Source of the DNA: a virus
Virus record (IMG/VR): IMGVR_UViG_3300021437_000013
Coordinates: 1 to 64,000 of that record
DNA: 64,000 nt
Direction: 5' to 3' (one strand)
The translations under genes and the position numbers were made by a program. The number at the start of each line of letters is the position of its first letter. Within the stretch, counting starts at the first letter, position 1. Positions 3,299-57,349 of this stretch are shown here, in pieces. The notes beneath the pieces were generated by a model. The model was not told the DNA's origin. It did no database searches and saw only the letters and a list, made by a program, of their open reading frames with translations.

Positions 3299-3520
3299 TC
3301 ACACACTAACACCTTGAATTTTAATTTCTGACTGTTTTCCGTTCTCATCAACGAGTATAACCCTACCGCCTTTTTTTAAAGCGTTCAAGACTGTATCGGC
3401 AATATCTACGGCCAGTTCAAGTGCATCCGTTTTTGTTTTCAAGTTAGCATCTTTCTTTATTCTATCAACTTTACTAACTGTTCCCTTAAACATTTCAGTT
3501 TGAATAATCGTAGTTGTCAT
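3299..3520 (-). CDS. small ribbon-helix-helix-like DNA-binding protein
   Basis: Strand-helix-helix pattern (KVDRIKKDANLKTKTDALELAV) followed by GGRVILVDENG. Confidence 0.45.
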   Translation of the reverse strand: MTTTIIQTEMFKGTVSKVDRIKKDANLKTKTDALELAVDIADTVLNALKKGGRVILVDENGKQSEIKIQGVSV

Positions 3521-4176
3521 ACACCTATTCCGTATAGTTTACAAATTGGAAACTCTTTACTATTACCGCCATGGTATATAGTCATTAACTCTTTTAAATA
3601 TTCTTCACCGTACAAACCTTTCATCTTCTTTTCATAATAAGAATGAATGGCTCTTAGTAAGAAGTTCCTATTCTTTTGTGGGAATAAGCTTATGAAGTCA
3701 AGAATCTTGCCGCTTGTTTGGTCTTTACTTTGATTACAGCTTATAATCAGGTTAATTAAAAAGAACGGTAGGAATAGATATGCTAATATTGAATCAGCAC
3801 ACAATCCAAAAATAAAGTAATTAGCTGGATTGAATGGTAGGAATCTTGTAATGTCGGTAGACTTCCCTTTAGTATTATCATAAGTACCAAGATGACGCAG
3901 TAAATACTTCCATATCTGTTTTGCATGGCCAGTATTATACGCTTTAGAGAATGATGTTATTGCAATAAGCTCGTCGTGGCTTGTTGTTTTAACTAAAGTT
4001 GGATTCCTGTTATATAATCCATCTTCTACTTTACAAACGCTCAAATGTTTATTCATTAATAAAACCTTATCTTTATCATCAGTGAGGAATAAGTAGGTAA
4101 CTAAGAATAATCCGGCATTTTCGGATTCTTTATCTAAGTCTGTCACTAATCCATTTTCAACTGTAAAATAATTCAT
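3517..4176 (-). CDS. hypothetical protein with a hydrophobic segment
   Basis: 219-aa ORF with an AGGAG RBS. Confidence 0.65.
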   Translation of the reverse strand: MNYFTVENGLVTDLDKESENAGLFLVTYLFLTDDKDKVLLMNKHLSVCKVEDGLYNRNPTLVKTTSHDELIAITSFSKAYNTGHAKQIWKYLLRHLGTYDNTKGKSTDITRFLPFNPANYFIFGLCADSILAYLFLPFFLINLIISCNQSKDQTSGKILDFISLFPQKNRNFLLRAIHSYYEKKMKGLYGEEYLKELMTIYHGGNSKEFPICKLYGIGV

Positions 4177-4188
4177 ATAACTCCTACA

Positions 4189-4992
4189 TTAAAACATGAT
4201 ACCATAATACTTATTTTTAATCAACTTATCTGATTTAATTAAATTATAAATGCTACAGCTCTTTTTAAATCCAAGAAAGTCGCAAGCATCTTTAGTATTT
4301 AAAAAAGAAATAAAAGGTTCTCTATTAATATTGTAAAGAGTAACTCTTCTTTTTACATCTTTTAGAAAAGTCTTTCTGTCTTTAGTATTTTCTATAATAT
4401 CCTTTATTGATTTATTTCTATACTTATATTTTTTATGTGCCGTATCATATTTTATATTATACAAGATACACCACTCCATTAGAGTTTTTTCTTGGCCGTT
4501 ATATTCTAAATAAATAGTACAGTCTCTATTATGAATTTGTTCTAGTGGAGTAGCCCATCTACAATTTTCCTTAAAATAACCTTTATTGTTGTCTATTCTG
4601 TCTATAGATAAACCATTCGATTCTCCCATATCCTCAAAGAAATTTTCAAAACTATTAAACCATCTACTACACATTGTTATATTTCTATCTCTATAACACT
4701 TAGAACTTAAATCATTTCTTCTTCCAGAAGTTCTCCCTTTTATTTGCGACCATATTCTATACTCTCTTGTTTTACTTTTACCATGAGTCTTGACTATTGA
4801 TGAGTGGTTACACCAGCAAATTTTTGTATATTCGCTTTTAGATATTAACGTATTTGTGCTTCTTATAATATCTTTTCCACACTCGCACCGACACTTCCAA
4901 TGCGCTTTTGAGTTTTTTACACTACCTTCCGCTAAACCTACTACTTCTAATTTTCCGAATACCCGTCCTGTTAAATCATTAAAATATTCCAT
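4189..4992 (-). CDS. HNH homing endonuclease
   Basis: DLTGRVFGKL...WKCRCECG N-terminus and LSIDRIDNNKGYFKENCRWAT HNH core. Free-standing next to thyX. Confidence 0.9.
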   Translation of the reverse strand: MEYFNDLTGRVFGKLEVVGLAEGSVKNSKAHWKCRCECGKDIIRSTNTLISKSEYTKICWCNHSSIVKTHGKSKTREYRIWSQIKGRTSGRRNDLSSKCYRDRNITMCSRWFNSFENFFEDMGESNGLSIDRIDNNKGYFKENCRWATPLEQIHNRDCTIYLEYNGQEKTLMEWCILYNIKYDTAHKKYKYRNKSIKDIIENTKDRKTFLKDVKRRVTLYNINREPFISFLNTKDACDFLGFKKSCSIYNLIKSDKLIKNKYYGIMF

Positions 4993-5000
4993 TTGTTCTC

Positions 5001-5621
5001 CTAAGTATCAAATATAATAGGTATCTTACTTTGTAGTATAGCTCCGATCTCTGTAGCTAAAAATCTAATCTCATCTTGTGCTTTTTTTGTTCTTCTCTTT
5101 TTAAGAAAGTCTCGCCATAACCTTAAGTTTCCCGTCATAACCATTTCAACCATAACAGCGTTATTAAGTGCGTTACGAGCTACTTGTGGCTTAAGTCCTG
5201 ATGTTGATAAGCTGATATAAAATTTCTCACAGCTTTCCATAGCTTGACAAAATAAAAATTGTTGCTCTGTAGTCCACTTATGATAATCCATAGGAGTAAT
5301 AAACTCAACACCATCTGGGTATTTATCTGTACGAGTAAAGTTACAAAATCTCTGACTTCTTGCCGAGTATGAAAATAATCTATGCCGTACTATTTGGTTA
5401 TGACATGCTCTACTACATTTAATTTTAACGCTTACAGATGCATGTTCTATAACACTCTCGTGAGCACTTTCTAATATTTTAGATAAGAGAACAGTATGAC
5501 TATTTTCATTTACTTTGTCATTGGAGTCATAACAAACTCTTGTTGCATGTTCAATATGACGGAGAACTGCTACTCCGTCAATATCAGTAATCAATTCTAC
5601 ACTAGGATTAATTAGCTTCAT
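5001..5621 (-). CDS. thyX: FAD-dependent thymidylate synthase
   Basis: HESVIEH, QIVRHRLFSYSARSQR (ThyX motif), MTGNLR and AQDEIR. Confidence 0.96.
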   Translation of the reverse strand: MKLINPSVELITDIDGVAVLRHIEHATRVCYDSNDKVNENSHTVLLSKILESAHESVIEHASVSVKIKCSRACHNQIVRHRLFSYSARSQRFCNFTRTDKYPDGVEFITPMDYHKWTTEQQFLFCQAMESCEKFYISLSTSGLKPQVARNALNNAVMVEMVMTGNLRLWRDFLKKRRTKKAQDEIRFLATEIGAILQSKIPIIFDT

Positions 5622-12399: not shown

Positions 12400-12427
12400 A
12401 TAAGCTCCTTGGTTGTTTGTTACCTGT

Positions 12428-12455
12428 AGTCTACCATACCTAAACTATCTGTCAA
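12428..12455 (-). promoter_or_regulatory. sigma70-type early promoter
   Basis: TTGACA-16 (ending TGG)-TAGACT. Confidence 0.7.
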
Positions 12456-12482
12456 TACTTAATTTACATTATTTTGATATTC

Positions 12483-12815
12483 GGGAATAGGAAGGGCAAA
12501 GTGTTCTTAGTCTTCATGAACAGCTTAGTATGCAGGTTTGTGATGCCCGAGGTCAAACATAGAGCTTGTAAGGTATGCATTGCCTAAGATTTGGTTAGTG
12601 TTTACACACCATGAAGAACTTAGGCCAGAGAAAAAAGGGTAACAAGAACTGTTTGCATATTATCCTAACTCGCAACTACTATAATCTATCAGCTTCTTTT
12701 CCCACTTTGCCTATTTCCCTTTCAAGATTGTAAGCTGACAGATTTGCTACACTTAAGTAGCTATATTTTAGTTTATGTCCAAAATAGATAAATGACGTAG
12801 GATTGTAGAATATCA
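12483..12815 (+). ncRNA. candidate structured ncRNA, copy A (homologous to 15913-16250)
   Basis: No ORF. Helices 12495-12503/12703-12711 and 12511-12518/12610-12617 covary with copy B, and the 3' block is 35/40 nt identical. Confidence 0.7.
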
Positions 12816-13181
12816 TAAGATGCAACAAATGTAAAGGTATAATACACTTACAACACATTGTAGCTACATTTTACTTATTCTTTAGTAATTACATGAGGTT
12901 ACTATGATACATCTATGATACAAGCTATATTTAATATACTAATATTAACAGGTTTGTTAATTTAAGTAGATTCATTATTCTAATTGATGATTAGTTGATA
13001 CATCTTAAACCAATGGCACTTATTGCCATTATTTGCCAAACGATAGTATATCAATCTTACTATAGTTTAGTGTTTCAGACTAACTTTTTCTATGTTTTTA
13101 TAAAATACAAGTAAGTGATTCTTTAGTAAATACTAGTAGTTGCTATATGCTTTTATGTACACAATATATTTCATGTACATT

Positions 13182-13221
13182 AAACTGTTACAAACTGTTA
13201 CAAAATGTTACAAATTGTGAC
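13182..13221. repeat. four tandem 10-bp iteron-like repeats
   Basis: AAACTGTTAC, AAACTGTTAC, AAAATGTTAC, AAATTGTGAC inside a very AT-rich non-coding stretch. Confidence 0.8.
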
Positions 13222-13395
13222 ACTATTTAGCAGATTAATGCTGAAATTTGAATTAACATCGTAGTATTAATTATAGGACATAATTACCTTTTATGCTGAA
13301 AATACCATCTGTAGTGTTAATATTTTGATACTAAACCTAACTAATATCTTGTATTAATTATACTAATATGTTAGTATGATAAAATAGGAGGTTCT

Positions 13396-14001
13396 ATGGC
13401 TAAAAAACTAAACATAAAGCTTATACTGGCCGCACAAATGGCTAAAGGTATAAACCCAGAAGATGAAAAGATTAGGATTAAGCAGAAGGTTGAAAATGAG
13501 GAAGAGAGATTGCGACAACTTAGGTTTGAAAATCTTAAAAGAAGTATAACTTATCAAGCCGGGCTAATCGAACATAGAGATGATAGTCAAGACATAATCA
13601 ATACTATGGTTAAGGATAAGAGGAAGCTGTTTCTAAAAGAATATAAAGGATTCTCAATCCCTAATTCTTATATGTCATATTCTCAATGGAAAGTAGAACA
13701 CGCTACAATTAGCCATCCTATGTCCTATTTAAGAAACGTAAGATTACATAAAGGAATAGAGTATTTAGGTAATAAAGAGGAGATACTACAAGATATTAGA
13801 AGTAGAATAGATACTTACAATATGTATCATCCTACAGATAAGTTTAATAATCGGATATTTGATGATATAAGACATATACTAAAGAATCTTGCTGAGTATA
13901 TACCTGATATTATGAGTGATTCAGAACTTATATTTGAGTTTAAAGCAAGACACATCACTCCTAAGAATAGACACAACCCATTTATACCGCTTAACAACTA
14001 A
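13396..14001 (+). CDS. hypothetical protein (basic, helical)
   Basis: 201-aa ORF with a perfect AGGAGG RBS and no motif I recognise. Confidence 0.75.
   Translation: MAKKLNIKLILAAQMAKGINPEDEKIRIKQKVENEEERLRQLRFENLKRSITYQAGLIEHRDDSQDIINTMVKDKRKLFLKEYKGFSIPNSYMSYSQWKVEHATISHPMSYLRNVRLHKGIEYLGNKEEILQDIRSRIDTYNMYHPTDKFNNRIFDDIRHILKNLAEYIPDIMSDSELIFEFKARHITPKNRHNPFIPLNN
13992..14000 (+). promoter_or_regulatory. late promoter motif TAACAACTA
   Basis: Exact motif, followed by non-coding structured sequence instead of an RBS and ORF. Confidence 0.7.
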
Positions 14002-14005
14002 ATGT

Positions 14006-14445
14006 GAAGGAATGATAGTAAGCCATAAAGATGAGGGGCGATAATACATCTCTTCTAAAGTTAATAGCTCGTAGGTCTGAGATAATGGAAACAAAGGGTA
14101 GGACTGAAATGAGTGTGTCCAGAGAGTAAGATGAATAAACTTACCACAGGCATTAAAGGAAGCAATAGCTTCACTGCTTATAACAACCAAGCTTAAGCAG
14201 AAGGATATAGAAAGTCTTATCCTTATTTAACTTTAGACGTTTCAACCTCGGTAAGTTGAATAGTTAATGGAGCATATATCTTACCCATTAACAATAAATA
14301 GATACTTCTTAGGAAGAACTATATCTAAAAGCGACACTGAGCAATACATTTACAATGTCTTAGGCAACTTGGTCATGAGACAAAAGGTTAAGTGAAAGTG
14401 TATGTGACTTAGCAGCTACATAACCAGTCCTCTCTTCTTACCTCT
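14006..14445 (+). ncRNA. candidate ornate structured ncRNA (RNA C)
   Basis: About 12 contiguous hairpins, a perfect 11-bp long-range helix (14054-14064/14227-14237) and a 5'/3' closing helix. Starts at a late promoter. Confidence 0.7.
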
Positions 14446-14498
14446 TAAGGTTATCTTAGTATAGCAACCTAACCAGTAGCATAACTGAGTAAAATCAA

Positions 14499-14521
14499 GG
14501 GGTTAGGGGTAGGGTAGGGGG
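14499..14521 (+). other. canonical G-quadruplex motif
   Basis: GGGG-TTA-GGGG-TA-GGG-TA-GGGGG. Confidence 0.75.
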
Positions 14522-14762
14522 TAAATAGGTAGCCTGTTGGGGACGTTTAACCGCTCATATTTACAAACTTAAAATTAAAATAGAAACATTACCAGAATAA
14601 CCCTGACTTGGTAAGTGGTTAAAATACATCGTATAAAGCTATTAGAGGCTTATAGAGGGGTTAGAATGGTAATGGTAGGGGGTATATAGGGGGAAACCCT
14701 TAATCCTCTTAAAATGCCTATTACAGCATTAGGATACTTAGAAACAACCTTGTTCTTGTTAG

Positions 14763-14771
14763 TAACAACTA
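14763..14771 (+). promoter_or_regulatory. late promoter motif TAACAACTA
   Basis: Exact motif upstream of GAGG and the ATG at 14787. Confidence 0.75.
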
Positions 14772-14786
14772 TCAGTAGAGGTTGAT

Positions 14787-15461
14787 ATGATTGATTTAAA
14801 CATAATAGGTTCATGTGTGTATGCATTAATTGATGATAATAATAAAGAGGTTATTGTTATTGGTACCAGTAATGGATATAAGGGATTAGTAGAAGAGATG
14901 TATTGTATATCTACTAAAGTTAAATATGATGGGTTTACAGTTACTAACGTTGTAGCTTCACCATTACCAGAAGAATCCAGAATCAGATTACAAACAATAG
15001 ATAAGCTTATTACTGAATACACAAATAAACAGTATATAGTTAGAAACAGCACTAGAAAACGTAGTAGTATGACTTATAAGATTATCTGTAAAAGTATGAA
15101 ACTTGGTGGGATGATAACCAGACAGAACATCTTCATAGTTATAGAGAAGAGTATTAAGTATAATGGTAAAGTCCGTGGAGTATTTGAGTCTAACGAAGAG
15201 GCTAACAACTTCATTGACTACTTAAAGAGTATGAATGAGGATATGTTACGGCCACTATCTGCATGTAATGCACTTACTAAAGCTTGGACATTAGAAGAAG
15301 AAAGACAGAAATCAGAGTATTTAATACCCGGTAAGAAGACTGTGACAGTAAGTATGGATGGTCACGGGAAAGAGGCTAGAAGGATATCTTATCCTAGAGC
15401 TGTAATACTACATAACATTAAGCAGATGTTAGCCGGGTTACCTACAATGCCACTTAACTAA
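14787..15461 (+). CDS. hypothetical protein, possibly with a degenerate GIY-YIG-like N-terminus
   Basis: SCVYALIDDNNKEVIVIGTS has GIY...YIG-like spacing but is degenerate. Confidence 0.6.
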   Translation: MIDLNIIGSCVYALIDDNNKEVIVIGTSNGYKGLVEEMYCISTKVKYDGFTVTNVVASPLPEESRIRLQTIDKLITEYTNKQYIVRNSTRKRSSMTYKIICKSMKLGGMITRQNIFIVIEKSIKYNGKVRGVFESNEEANNFIDYLKSMNEDMLRPLSACNALTKAWTLEEERQKSEYLIPGKKTVTVSMDGHGKEARRISYPRAVILHNIKQMLAGLPTMPLN

Positions 15462-15835
15462 TAATTATGCATATGTCGTAGTATTGCAACTTGATCTAAG
15501 AAGCTAATATTAAGCTTTTGAAGCTGTGTACGTTTAGCCTTAGGTACACTAGCCAACTCTAATTGTAACGTGTTTAAATCGAAATTAGGTGCCTTAGATA
15601 ACGTCTTAAGTAACACCTCTGCTGATATCTCTTTAAGATGCTTACGGTTGGCATACTTAACGTTAAATACACATTCTGGATTAAGGATATCTTTCTCATA
15701 CTCTATTTCTAACCCCATACCATCATATACACCAGTTAATACTAATTCTATCTTACTGTGACTAACTACATCAAATGATTCAGATACAATTAAGTAATGC
15801 TCAGTCATGTTGTGTTTGTATTTGTAATATTTCAT
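15458..15835 (-). CDS. hypothetical early protein
   Basis: AAGGAG RBS and its own sigma70 promoter. Confidence 0.7.
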   Translation of the reverse strand: MKYYKYKHNMTEHYLIVSESFDVVSHSKIELVLTGVYDGMGLEIEYEKDILNPECVFNVKYANRKHLKEISAEVLLKTLSKAPNFDLNTLQLELASVPKAKRTQLQKLNISFLDQVAILRHMHNY

Positions 15836-15852
15836 ATTTACTCCTTACCTTC

Positions 15853-15880
15853 ACTATATCATAGCTACATATTAAGTCAA
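15853..15880 (-). promoter_or_regulatory. sigma70-type early promoter
   Basis: TTGACT-16 (ending TGA)-TATAGT. Confidence 0.7.
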
Positions 15881-15912
15881 CAAGTATCTATAATAATACT
15901 AATATTCATTTT

Positions 15913-16250
15913 AGACAATAGGAGGGGCAAGGCATCTTTGTCCTAATAATAGCCCCTGGGGGAGGGTTATGCGCCGATAGACTTGCTTGGTAGTGTTGCT
16001 CAGGATTTGTTTAGTGCTATTAACACCATTAGGAACACAGAGCTGGAGACAAAAAGAAACAGAACCATTTACACTAATATCCAAGTTACGCTATCTCATG
16101 TCGGTGTATCATCTACTTTACTGTGCCTTGCCTTATCTCTTTTTGCAGCTTAGTAGTGAATTCCAGGTTATCTTTATACTGCTAACTCTCACAGTTGTCT
16201 TTTTAGGTTATGTCCAAAAAGGGTAAATGACGTAGGATGATAGAATAACA
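15913..16250 (+). ncRNA. candidate structured ncRNA, copy B (homologous to 12483-12815)
   Basis: Helices 15926-15934/16124-16132, 15941-15947/16028-16034 and 16107-16113/16236-16242, with compensatory changes relative to copy A. Confidence 0.7.
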
Positions 16251-16308
16251 CAGAAAGGTAGATAAATCAATAATTATTATATTATTTAGTTGACAAATGA
16301 ATAGAAAC

Positions 16309-16317
16309 TAACAACTA
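16309..16317 (+). promoter_or_regulatory. late promoter motif TAACAACTA
   Basis: Exact motif at the head of the terminase operon. Confidence 0.8.
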
Positions 16318-16335
16318 CTACTAAAGGATTAAAAC

Positions 16336-16560
16336 ATGGACTTAAGAGAATGTAAAATATGTAATCAGGTTAAGCCAAGACTTACACTTGGATTATTCCC
16401 AAATGGCAGAGCGCCTAAGTATGCAGATGAACATGGTAAGCTTTGGAATGGACTTGTATGCCCATCGTGTACTGTAGATAGAGCTAAAGAAACTATGAAG
16501 ATTACAAGAAGCAATAGAAAGCTGGCCGCTAAGATTGAGAAAGATAATGAAATTAGATGA
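16336..16560 (+). CDS. small zinc-finger protein
   Basis: CKIC...CPSC followed by a basic helix. Confidence 0.7.
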   Translation: MDLRECKICNQVKPRLTLGLFPNGRAPKYADEHGKLWNGLVCPSCTVDRAKETMKITRSNRKLAAKIEKDNEIR

Positions 16561-24252: not shown

Positions 24253-24261
24253 TAACAACTA
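24253..24261 (+). promoter_or_regulatory. late promoter motif TAACAACTA (leaderless start)
   Basis: Exact motif with a 5-nt gap to the ATG at 24267 and no RBS in between. Confidence 0.75.
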
Positions 24262-24266
24262 ATAGA

Positions 24267-24647
24267 ATGGGAACTTCTAAAGAAAAACTTACATTTGACA
24301 ATACTGATGCAAGTAATAGTGATACCGTTGGGGCAACTATTATTGGTGCTGATGGTAATATCATTACTGACACGGTAGTTGGCCTTAAAAAAGGGTTAGA
24401 TGTTAATGTTATCAGTGACATAAACGTCACAACAAGTGCAACACCAGAAGAATTAAGCTACATTGACCAATATAGTGATACAGTTTTCTACTTTGGTTAT
24501 GCCGCTATAGGCTCAGTAACCTCTGGTGCAGTATGGAAAATCACAAGATTAACCATTTCTGGAACTATAGTAAAAACTGAGTATGCCGCCGGAGTCTCGA
24601 CGTACACCCAAGTATGGGATAATAGAACAAGTTTAAGTTATTCATAA
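24267..24647 (+). CDS. putative structural protein
   Basis: YFGYAAIGS...AVWKITRL...WDNRTSLSYS, a pattern common in phage virion proteins. Confidence 0.65.
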   Translation: MGTSKEKLTFDNTDASNSDTVGATIIGADGNIITDTVVGLKKGLDVNVISDINVTTSATPEELSYIDQYSDTVFYFGYAAIGSVTSGAVWKITRLTISGTIVKTEYAAGVSTYTQVWDNRTSLSYS

Positions 24648-48610: not shown

Positions 48611-49960
48611 ATGGCCGCACAAACTGGTACAGGTTTTACAAATTTAAGTAAGATTTTAGGAGCCAATCAAGGTAATCAACTTGGTCAAACAGTTGCGTCA
48701 AATATCCAAAATGCAGGTCAACAAGTACAATCAGGTATTAACCAAGCTTCAAATCAATTCAAGACTGATGCAGATAAGAATAGATTAGATACTGCAGAAA
48801 ATAAGCAGTTTGTAACGGATACCGTTGGTGGGATAGTACAAGCTGACCCAAGTAATACAGCGGCACAAACAGCTACACCAGACCAATTATCAAGAATGTC
48901 AAAGATTATGGGCGGTACTTATCAAGGCCCTACAGACTTAAACAATACACAACAATTAAATGCTAGTGCACAAAATGCACAAGATTTAGGTAACCTATCT
49001 ACTTCGGGAAGTGGTAGACAAGAGTTATTAAGACGTACAGTTGGTAACACTGGTTATAATGCAGGTGCGAGAAAGGTAGATAGTGCTTTACTTGGTCAAT
49101 CTGGACAAGACTTATCAAGAGCAAGACAAACCACACAAGGATTAGTACAGAATGTAAATGATGCTTCACAACAAGCACAATTGACTGGTCAACAATATCA
49201 AGGTCAAGCTAAACAATTTGCAACTGATACAAAAGATACAATCAATAAGAATTTAGGTACTATGGATGAAAAGACTGCAGCAGATTTTAAAGCCGCACAA
49301 GATGCGGAAGCAGCAAGAACCGCAAAGATTGCGGCCATAAGTCAATTTGCTAACAATCAAAAACCAGTATTAAATCCAGATGGTTCTCAGAAATTAGATA
49401 TGAATGGTAATCCAGTAATGGAAGCTGTAACTAATAAAACAGGAGCCGATACATTAACGGATTTCCAAAAATTATTAGAGTCAAAAGGTGTTTTAAATGC
49501 CGACCAATTAAAAACTTTATTTGGTCAAGGTAACTTAAGCGAAGCTAATGCAGCAAGATTAGCAATTGTAAATCCAAATATAGCAAATCGAAACATAGCA
49601 ACGAGAAATTACATGCATGATATGGCAGAGGATAATTATGTTAGAAATATACTTTCACAGCCTTATAATACAACAATTAATAATGCAAATAATGCTTTTA
49701 CTAATGTTGGGGGCATTGCCGCACAAAAAGCATTACAAGGCGACTCTGCTATCTCTAGTTTGTATGCCAACTTAGCTAAACAATTACAAAACTCTACAGG
49801 TGCACAAAACCTTACACAACAAGGTGTTGCATCTCAAGACTTAAGAAATAAATATACAGCTTTACAACAATTATTAGGTAAACAAGGAACTGACTTAACT
49901 TACAATAATGCTCCAGTATATCAAGCTGGTCAATTAGGAATAGATACCAGTAAATTATAA
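48611..49960 (+). CDS. internal virion / DNA ejection protein candidate
   Basis: Q/N/A/G-rich and helical, located after the tail genes. Confidence 0.6.
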   Translation: MAAQTGTGFTNLSKILGANQGNQLGQTVASNIQNAGQQVQSGINQASNQFKTDADKNRLDTAENKQFVTDTVGGIVQADPSNTAAQTATPDQLSRMSKIMGGTYQGPTDLNNTQQLNASAQNAQDLGNLSTSGSGRQELLRRTVGNTGYNAGARKVDSALLGQSGQDLSRARQTTQGLVQNVNDASQQAQLTGQQYQGQAKQFATDTKDTINKNLGTMDEKTAADFKAAQDAEAARTAKIAAISQFANNQKPVLNPDGSQKLDMNGNPVMEAVTNKTGADTLTDFQKLLESKGVLNADQLKTLFGQGNLSEANAARLAIVNPNIANRNIATRNYMHDMAEDNYVRNILSQPYNTTINNANNAFTNVGGIAAQKALQGDSAISSLYANLAKQLQNSTGAQNLTQQGVASQDLRNKYTALQQLLGKQGTDLTYNNAPVYQAGQLGIDTSKL

Positions 49961-49966
49961 CAACTA
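49958..49966 (+). promoter_or_regulatory. late promoter motif TAACAACTA (leaderless start)
   Basis: Exact motif with a 5-nt gap to the ATG at 49972. Confidence 0.75.
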
Positions 49967-49971
49967 TAGAA

Positions 49972-50367
49972 ATGGAACTTAAAGAAGCAATAACCAAATT
50001 TTATAGTAGTGATAATGATTTAATAGAGAAGTTTCATATTATAGCTGGTAGTGGGTTAGAAGCTTGTGTAAATAGAACGGTAGATGATTTAGATAAGGTT
50101 GACATAACTTATATCTATGATAAAGAGGAACTAATAGGATACTTTGCAACAGATACACAGCCTTATATTACCTATTTAATAGGGTTTTTTATAATGCCGG
50201 AGTATCGGAAAGATAAGAAGTATTGGAATGAAATAATAGATACTTTGCCAGTTGGTACAATAAGTGGCCTTTATAATAAGAATATAAGAGCCCAGAAGTT
50301 TTACAGTAAGCAAGGTTATAAGATATTAAGTAAAACGGTAGATGGACGCATTTATCGAATTAAATAG
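49972..50367 (+). CDS. GNAT-family acetyltransferase-like protein
   Basis: LIGYF, FFIMPEYRK and NIRAQKFYSKQGY. Position resembles T7 gp13. Confidence 0.75.
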   Translation: MELKEAITKFYSSDNDLIEKFHIIAGSGLEACVNRTVDDLDKVDITYIYDKEELIGYFATDTQPYITYLIGFFIMPEYRKDKKYWNEIIDTLPVGTISGLYNKNIRAQKFYSKQGYKILSKTVDGRIYRIK

Positions 50368-56445: not shown

Positions 56446-56839
56446 TCATTACCTCTTCATGCCCAGCACTATCATATACTACTTCTCTTTTTTTACATAC
56501 TTCACAGAAGTAAATAGTCCTCACCATTGAAGTAGCAAGAATCTTGTACGGCCGTTGACAATCTTTACACTTATCTTCGTGTACTTCTTTAGCTTCTTTA
56601 TCAATCTTCTTTAATTTGTTTTCTTGTTTTAAGGCTTTAATAACCTTTTCGACTGGAACACCATCAAGTTTGTTATCAATAAAGCTGCGAGTTTTATCAA
56701 ATGCTTCTTGTAATGTTTTAAGTTCAGATATTAACTTCTGTTTATCAGACGCTAATCGTCTTATTTTTGATTTCAGTTCTTTTACTTCACCAGACTTACC
56801 ATCTTCTTTTGAAAATGATTTATGTTTACGACCCATCAT
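56432..56839 (-). CDS. coiled-coil protein with C-terminal zinc ribbon
   Basis: CKDC...CEVC. Confidence 0.65.
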   Translation of the reverse strand: MMGRKHKSFSKEDGKSGEVKELKSKIRRLASDKQKLISELKTLQEAFDKTRSFIDNKLDGVPVEKVIKALKQENKLKKIDKEAKEVHEDKCKDCQRPYKILATSMVRTIYFCEVCKKREVVYDSAGHEEVMNEVE

Positions 56840-56849
56840 ATGGCCTTTG

Positions 56850-57349
56850 TTAAATGTTTTTCAATCCTTCTCTAATCTTCTGAATCTCAAGCATCATAAT
56901 AGTGTATAATGGCTTAATTTCAGGTCTGTTTAAGTAAAGATTAACGGGAAGGTAATTATTAACATTATCAAGGTTAAGTGCTGTATAATCAGCCATTTCA
57001 CTTGAATTTTGTACTAATAATACTCCATTCTCATTAATTTCTACTTGACACACATCATTAGTTGTTAGATTAACCACCCTAAAAGCAGATAAATATAAAT
57101 CACTTAAGAAAGTTTCTGGATATTGGTACATAAAATCCTCCTAAAAGTGTATTAAACTGGGCCAAAATCAATTCTGGTCTTAGGAAGCTGTACTGGTTCA
57201 CCTTGGTCAAATTGAGGTGCCTCTTCATCTTGGTATTCAGATATAAGAATTTCAATCTTCTTTTGTTGCTCATTCCATGCCAATTCGGCAAGGTCATAAG
57301 CTTGAATAGAACAATCAGGGAATTGTGAAATAAAGTCTTTAAAAGTCAT
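56850..57349 (-). CDS. two hypothetical proteins (56850-57131 and 57152-57349)
   Basis: Each has an AGGAGG RBS. Confidence 0.6.

Follow-up and report, generated by a model that had tools for sequence, protein, structure and literature searches.

A gene-free gap of 785 nt in the genome of an uncultured freshwater phage (14002-14786, longest open reading frame 42 amino acids) appears, from the comparison of strains, to be under strong sequence constraint. It may well be a functional non-coding element, probably a new phage non-coding RNA. Several features of the locus point towards an RNA: the late-gene motif with flanks like those of other late copies, the lack of coding capacity, the constraint between strains, the fold of the core, a contig from an RNA library, the behaviour of the core and the upstream gene as a cassette, and the I-N-N-stop end seen among relatives of the upstream protein. 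Points against it include a fold of the whole 470 nt that barely beats that of shuffled sequences, and hairpins that could form on either strand or in single-stranded DNA. The strand, start site, 3' end, partner and function of the candidate RNA given below are those that we infer.

The locus lies at a gene switch point in an orphan phage

The DNA analysed (hereafter the window) covers the first 64 kb of an IMG/VR virus record of 77.8 kb, which is estimated to be 91% complete and has a GC content of about 35%. A leftward gene block for replication and nucleotide metabolism encodes ribonucleotide reductase, thymidylate synthase, DNA polymerase and methyltransferases, and a rightward block, from about 16.3 kb, encodes terminase, portal, capsid and tail proteins. 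The locus studied here lies at the switch between the leftward and rightward genes and is close to the minimum of the cumulative GC skew. The genome encodes a conventional large terminase of 849 amino acids and a portal of a general PHROG family.

The closest terminase relative in IMG/VR, and the sole one found, shares 23% identity. Related phage records were not detected by blastn in distant mode, and protein-anchored scans of viral, metagenome and genome contig sets, using the proteins encoded on either side of the gap (ORF201 and ORF224) and their alignments, returned no homologous locus. Exact 20-mers of the core had no match in viral and genome contigs and four chance matches only (20-22 nt) in metagenome contigs; a spurious minus-strand ORF of 89 amino acids, used as a probe for relatives, had no match either. 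Judged by these searches, the phage is an orphan lineage among the sequence collections examined.

Elsewhere in the leftward block, on the minus strand at 3517-5621, a thymidylate-synthase-like ORF (5001-5621) covers only part of the family profile. Immediately after it come an HNH endonuclease ORF (4189-4992) and an unassigned ORF of 219 amino acids (3517-4176). The gene may have been split by insertion of an endonuclease or an intron; Rfam gave no intron match at the gathering score.

A late-gene motif precedes a gap without a gene

The motif TAACAACTW occurs 15 times where 3.8 matches are expected, a count reached by none of 100 shuffles. The exact 9-mer TAACAACTA is present in 13 copies, as the original prediction had counted and well above chance, and its one-mismatch variants are at chance level. 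An ORF lies 5-84 nt downstream of 11 of the 13 exact copies. Copies precede portal, capsid and tail genes, and the motif belongs to the late structural-gene set. A search of the literature for the motif matched only unrelated primers.

The copy at 13992-14000 (plus strand) is a putative late promoter: the exact 9-mer and the upstream context shared by the late transcription units (..acc..ctT, as in the strong copies) are both present. The next ORF of at least 50 amino acids is 786 nt away, outside the 5-85 nt pattern of the late units. This copy had been described as the only one that is not followed by a gene. It is indeed followed by 785 nt without an ORF longer than 42 amino acids, but the copy at 57059 is an exception too. 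That copy (57059-57067) is the only exact one on the minus strand; 219 nt without an ORF of at least 50 amino acids follow (56840-57058), with a gene at 56839, and it is perhaps a second motif with no gene immediately behind it. A further exact copy, at 14763-14771 (plus strand), lies 15 nt before ORF224, which thus has its own signal.

Other details of the motif's surroundings were noted. One base after the 13992 copy is an ATG-TGA start-stop pair (14002-14007). Late-gene start codons have, by eye, purine-rich GGAG-type sequences just 5' of them. At 24253-24269 and 49958-49974 the start codon comes just 5 nt after TAACAACTA and no such sequence is seen by eye before it; if the motif acts as a promoter element of the -10 kind, the messengers of these two late units would be nearly leaderless.

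A coding role for the gap was rejected, as it holds no ORF of more than 42 amino acids and, by eye, no ribosome-binding site like those of the late genes. Known RNA families are not represented: cmscan against Rfam 15 at the gathering score gave no match in the whole 64-kb window, and at E values up to 10 the region 13900-14900 had chance matches to unrelated families only. This agrees with the suggestion that the element is possibly of a new class. ARAGORN detected no tRNA or tmRNA in the window, the gap has no second copy in the 77.8-kb genome, and no terminator-like site was found inside it. The missing terminator is uninformative because such sites occur no more often than by chance throughout the late region. 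Two specific identities were tried and rejected. A CsrA sponge of the CsrB/RsmZ type would be expected to display many GGA motifs in hairpin loops; 479 nt contain 7 (3.8 expected), none in the loops of the robust hairpins described below. The 15-nt direct repeat at 14414 and 14463 does not make a mini-CRISPR, with two copies only, of about 21 nt, and a 26-nt spacer. The hexamer CTTACC and its complement occur three times each in the stretch. Since nothing in Rfam or in the sequence collections searched resembles it, the stretch is a candidate for a new family.

The proteins on either side are orphans

ORF201 (13396-14001, plus strand), which ends where the gap begins, encodes an orphan helical protein. 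An exhaustive profile-free search found three relatives at 43-45% identity, and the protein had no Pfam, PHROG or Atlas feature match. In its AF2 model (pLDDT 69), the N-terminus forms a long helix and residues 95-175 a helical domain predicted with confidence; Foldseek found no match for the model in the PDB at an E value of 0.001 or better. The last codons of ORF201 (L-N-N-stop) overlap the TAACAACTA copy at 13992-14000. One group of relatives (P0007, 44% identity, nine JGI contigs) likewise ends in I-N-N. Read at the level of codons, an I-N-N-stop end would fit retention of TAACAACTA at this position, as T-AAC-AAC-TAA would give. ORF224 (14787-15461, plus strand) also encodes an orphan protein, 72-99% conserved in its relatives.

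The core of the gap is nearly invariant between strains

Fourteen public runs carry parts of 13396-15461, one of which may be the source sample; they come from eight studies of freshwater, aquatic and microbial-mat metagenomes. Four of these runs (X2, X6, X7 and X9) were compared over 12400-16400. The strain contigs of X2 and X7 delimit a near-invariant core of the candidate RNA, about 370 nt long (14006-14375, plus strand). The X2 contig has no difference in 137 nt at 14239-14375 and none is listed for 13975-14125; X7 has two differences in 183 nt at 14085-14267.

The surrounding sequence is more divergent. ORF201 of X2 differs at 21 of 606 positions, nearly all of them silent, since the protein is still 98% identical; the two pieces of ORF201 in X7 differ at 9 of 138 and 9 of 184 positions (18 of 322). 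Overall, ORF201 differs by 3.5-6.5% between strains, the flanking genes by 3-6%, and ORF224 and ORF125 by 2.8-3.4%. The spacer upstream of ORF201 has 11 differences in 40 nt in X2. Given the flanking rates, the low counts in the core have a chance of roughly 1e-4 in X2 and 2e-3 in X7 by our own Poisson estimate. By this comparison, the core diverges far more slowly than silent sites, more than ten times so in two independent metagenomes.

Another segment is similarly quiet. The largely non-coding region 15816-16400, upstream of the first late genes, is also nearly identical (1 of 301 and 2 of 314 positions in X2, 3 of 615 together; 2 of 212 in X7), and the genes next to it differ by about 3%. 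The near-identity of the core may therefore partly reflect mosaic recombination, because this second segment is nearly identical in X2 as well. By blastn, 15816-16400 shares one 50-nt block with 12766-12815 (86%).

The core is followed by a strain-variable block of 90 nt (14376-14465, plus strand). In X2, one contig matches exactly as far as 14375, continues with about 90 letters that do not align, and is alignable once more from 14466; the X6 contig resumes at 14432. A larger replacement is seen in X6, where the contig aligns at 13258-13325 and 14432-14515 and the intervening 1106 nt give way to 1366 other letters. ORF224 in X6 is 96.6% identical, while ORF201 and the core are replaced (13325-14432). 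Going by these alignments, the X6 relative has exchanged ORF201 together with the core, in the manner of a cassette, or the two have diverged jointly. The non-coding segment left of ORF201 is variable too: in X6, about 240 other letters replace the ORF-free 12478-12745.

The predicted fold is stable in the core and marginal over the whole

The candidate at 14006-14475 has a folding energy of -112 kcal/mol, against -99 kcal/mol for shuffles (z -1.9; 4 of 100 shuffles do as well), and the full 781 nt give z -1.85. Stability is concentrated at 14095-14400, which reaches z -3.9 on the plus strand, with none of 100 shuffles as good and a centroid equal to the minimum free energy structure (the minus strand has z -2.3). 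Sliding windows of 150 nt peak at 14101-14350 (z -3.0, -4.3 and -3.8). The 3' 219 nt (14262-14480) are at chance level (z -0.3). In a null of 236 windows from the genome (mean -0.28, sd 1.19), four reach -3 and one reaches -3.8 or lower; the core fold thus ranks within roughly the top 1% of the genome but is not unique. As extreme as the core is a 150-nt window at about 64451-64600 of the genome (plus strand, z -4.3), which lies outside the 64-kb window.

Six adjacent hairpins (14126-14327, plus strand) are thermodynamically robust. They start at 14126, 14159, 14174, 14201, 14263 and 14299, and almost all of their pairs have a probability above 0.75 (mostly 0.76-1.0). All six are perfect Watson-Crick inverted repeats, and for that reason do not by themselves reveal the strand, or whether the folded molecule is RNA or single-stranded DNA.

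These results support part of the structure that had been proposed from the sequence. Every stem named there is present as a string. The picture of a stretch almost fully tiled by stems exceeds chance only in part, most clearly at 14095-14400; likewise, set against shuffles, the core folds clearly better, but the whole 470 nt and the 3' half do not. Among the listed hairpins, the six above are robust, but those at 14101 and 14241 have a probability of about 0 to 0.03, and many on the list are weak (-1.2 to -3.6 kcal/mol). The helix proposed to close the structure (14018-14039 with 14427-14441) has a pair probability of about 0 in the 475-nt ensemble. The same is true of the 11-bp helix (14054-14064 with 14227-14237), but this helix does appear in the centroid of the 781-nt fold and is a possible alternative pairing in these models. 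Enforcing the two long-range helices costs 4.5-8.3 kcal/mol. Furthermore, the 3' strand of the closing helix lies within the variable block at 14376-14465 and its 5' strand is unchanged, which argues weakly against this helix. A single ornate architecture of about 440 nt closed by the named helices is thus not borne out, with z -1.9, helix probabilities of about 0 and a 3' half at chance level.

A G-rich region and an RNA-library contig

Downstream of the core, at 14499-14521 (plus strand), a motif search places the only canonical G-quadruplex motif of the 77.8-kb genome. It falls in a G-rich direct repeat whose copies (14498-14529 and 14656-14690) are 83% alike and enclose an AT-rich spacer (14498-14690, plus strand). 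Seven of the 73 runs of four or more G in the genome are located at 14499-14693. In X2 this region has both substitutions and indels and is less conserved than the core; several indels also fall in the final 60 nt ahead of the ORF224 motif, and 14729-14760 is the least conserved segment. The G-rich segment is 3' of a promoter-like motif and a structured leader, which is the arrangement of R-loop primers of the ColE1 RNA II type.

The stretch is represented in the one RNA run, the freshwater metatranscriptome X9, by one contig of 219 nt that is 100% identical to 14262-14480. This single contig (k-mer depth 6.3) gives no strand or ends, and DNA carry-over is possible. Parts of 12400-16400 are without cover in X9, and the flanking genes are not thereby shown to be silent. 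The piece recovered is the part that folds no better than shuffles (z -0.3). Taken together, the late motif without a gene, the constraint and the RNA-library piece favour the proposed late-expressed functional RNA, but not in the ornate form in which it was conceived.

Alternative explanations

A replication element of R-loop or primer type, or another DNA-level site (packaging or single-strand initiation), is the main rival explanation, though a somewhat unlikely one. For an R-loop, the promoter-like motif would fire a structured transcript, its G-rich RNA would hybridise to the C-rich template, and an AT-rich unwinding segment would follow. The only G-quadruplex motif of the genome and the G runs are on the non-template strand right after the core, around an AT-rich spacer; the locus is at the gene switch near the GC-skew minimum; and the hairpins, as perfect inverted repeats, are usable as DNA. 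Invariance at nearly every base fits a joint DNA and RNA constraint, and co-replacement with ORF201 would fit an initiator and its site. Yet the motif belongs to the late structural-gene set, the gap at 12860-13395 is AT-rich, repeat-bearing and more origin-like, conservation is lower in the G-rich part than in the core (X2 substitutions and indels), and ORF201 is without a recognisable initiator or terminase fold. We consider it unlikely that the stretch is untranslated mRNA rather than an independent RNA gene. In that case it would be the 3' UTR of ORF201 or a long ORF224 leader, its hairpins would be stabilising or would regulate in cis, and the RNA contig would be a fragment of the messenger. 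Against this, ORF224 is preceded at 15 nt by an exact motif of its own, and the segment adjoining it, 14729-14760, is the least conserved and has several indels; a UTR more constrained than the coding sequence on both sides would also be unusual. Such a messenger would nevertheless agree with the lack of a terminator between the stretch and ORF224, with an RNA contig that gives neither ends nor strand, and with an overall fold of z -1.9 only.

The complete structure first proposed, an ornate multi-helix RNA of about 440 nt of the GOLLD/ROOL kind closed by both named helices, is improbable. Its helices exist as strings, the 11-bp helix is in the centroid of the 781-nt fold, and the three copies each of CTTACC and its complement allow alternative or intermolecular pairings. 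Against these stand the pair probabilities of about 0 for both helices in the 475-nt ensemble, the overall z of -1.9, the lack of Rfam matches at E values up to 10 and of nearby tRNA genes, and the location of the 3' strand of the closing helix in a block that does not align in X2 and that the X6 boundary cuts through, with its 5' partner unchanged. Weak hairpins (-1.2 to -3.6 kcal/mol) and a 3' half at chance level would also be expected of a decayed gene or filler DNA, with stems as chance products of AT-rich sequence. The sequence constraint makes this very unlikely: neutral DNA should diverge at least as much as the silent sites of ORF201, whereas the core diverges more than ten times more slowly in two independent metagenomes, and its fold has z -3.9.

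A model for the candidate RNA

For the functional non-coding RNA that we prefer, the layout of the locus suggests the following order. A plus-strand transcript would begin a few bases after TAACAACTA, near 14006, and would consist of an invariant 5' core of about 370 nt (14006-14375) around the six stable hairpins (14126-14327), followed by the strain-variable block of about 90 nt (14376-14465). The G-rich tract with the G-quadruplex motif, from 14499, may mark or protect the 3' end. With low confidence, we suggest that the core could be a protein-binding platform in late infection, acting as a ribonucleoprotein scaffold or a decoy. The protein encoded by ORF201 is proposed as its likely partner because ORF201 and the core travel together. 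A still more specific version envisages a new class of phage RNA, about 370-480 nt long and expressed late, in which the core and ORF201 form an exchangeable cassette, the 90-nt block confers specificity (for example as a guide or decoy) and the 3' G-quadruplex is stabilising. This version is rather unlikely to hold in full.

Comparison with known systems

GOLLD and ROOL are often found near tRNA genes in phage or prophage DNA. The candidate differs from them in having no covariance-model match, no adjacent tRNA genes and no significantly stable global fold. It resembles them as a large non-coding phage stretch without a known protein product whose expression in lytic growth is probable. GOLLD and ROOL are large ornate RNAs with cryo-EM structures that show homo-oligomeric, RNA-only assembly (PMC12286853). 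Kinship to GOLLD, ROOL or the packaging RNA (pRNA) of phi29, which had been named as precedents, receives no support from the Rfam covariance models, none of which matched.

Like the phi29 pRNA, the candidate would be a structured RNA that a phage encodes a few kb ahead of its packaging genes. The pRNA is about 170 nt long, is transcribed early and belongs to small terminal-protein phages, whereas the candidate has no Rfam match, follows a late motif and is found in a 78-kb phage with a conventional large terminase and portal. A different parallel is offered by ColE1 RNA II, T4 oriF/oriG and mitochondrial CSBII, where a promoter, a structured transcript, a G-tract on the non-template strand and AT-rich DNA serve in R-loop priming. 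The locus has a similar layout, from promoter through a structured transcript of several hundred nt and a G-rich tract to AT-rich DNA, but its promoter type is the late structural-gene motif, and it has no demonstrable antisense regulator, RNase H site or polymerase start. Computationally predicted structured phage RNAs rest on covariation across many homologues (PMC10690425). Like them, the present candidate is intergenic, conserved and predicted to form hairpins, with no assigned function, but it rests on constraint between close strains and one RNA contig.

Few large phage non-coding RNAs are understood, and the candidates are mostly from gut or marine lineages that have been well sampled. 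Here, one locus unites a promoter-like signal without a gene, a slowly changing core, a variable block and the single G-quadruplex motif of the genome. Should the element be an RNA, it would represent a new family whose own locus hints at a protein partner, ORF201; should it be an R-loop element, it would indicate where replication starts in an orphan phage lineage.
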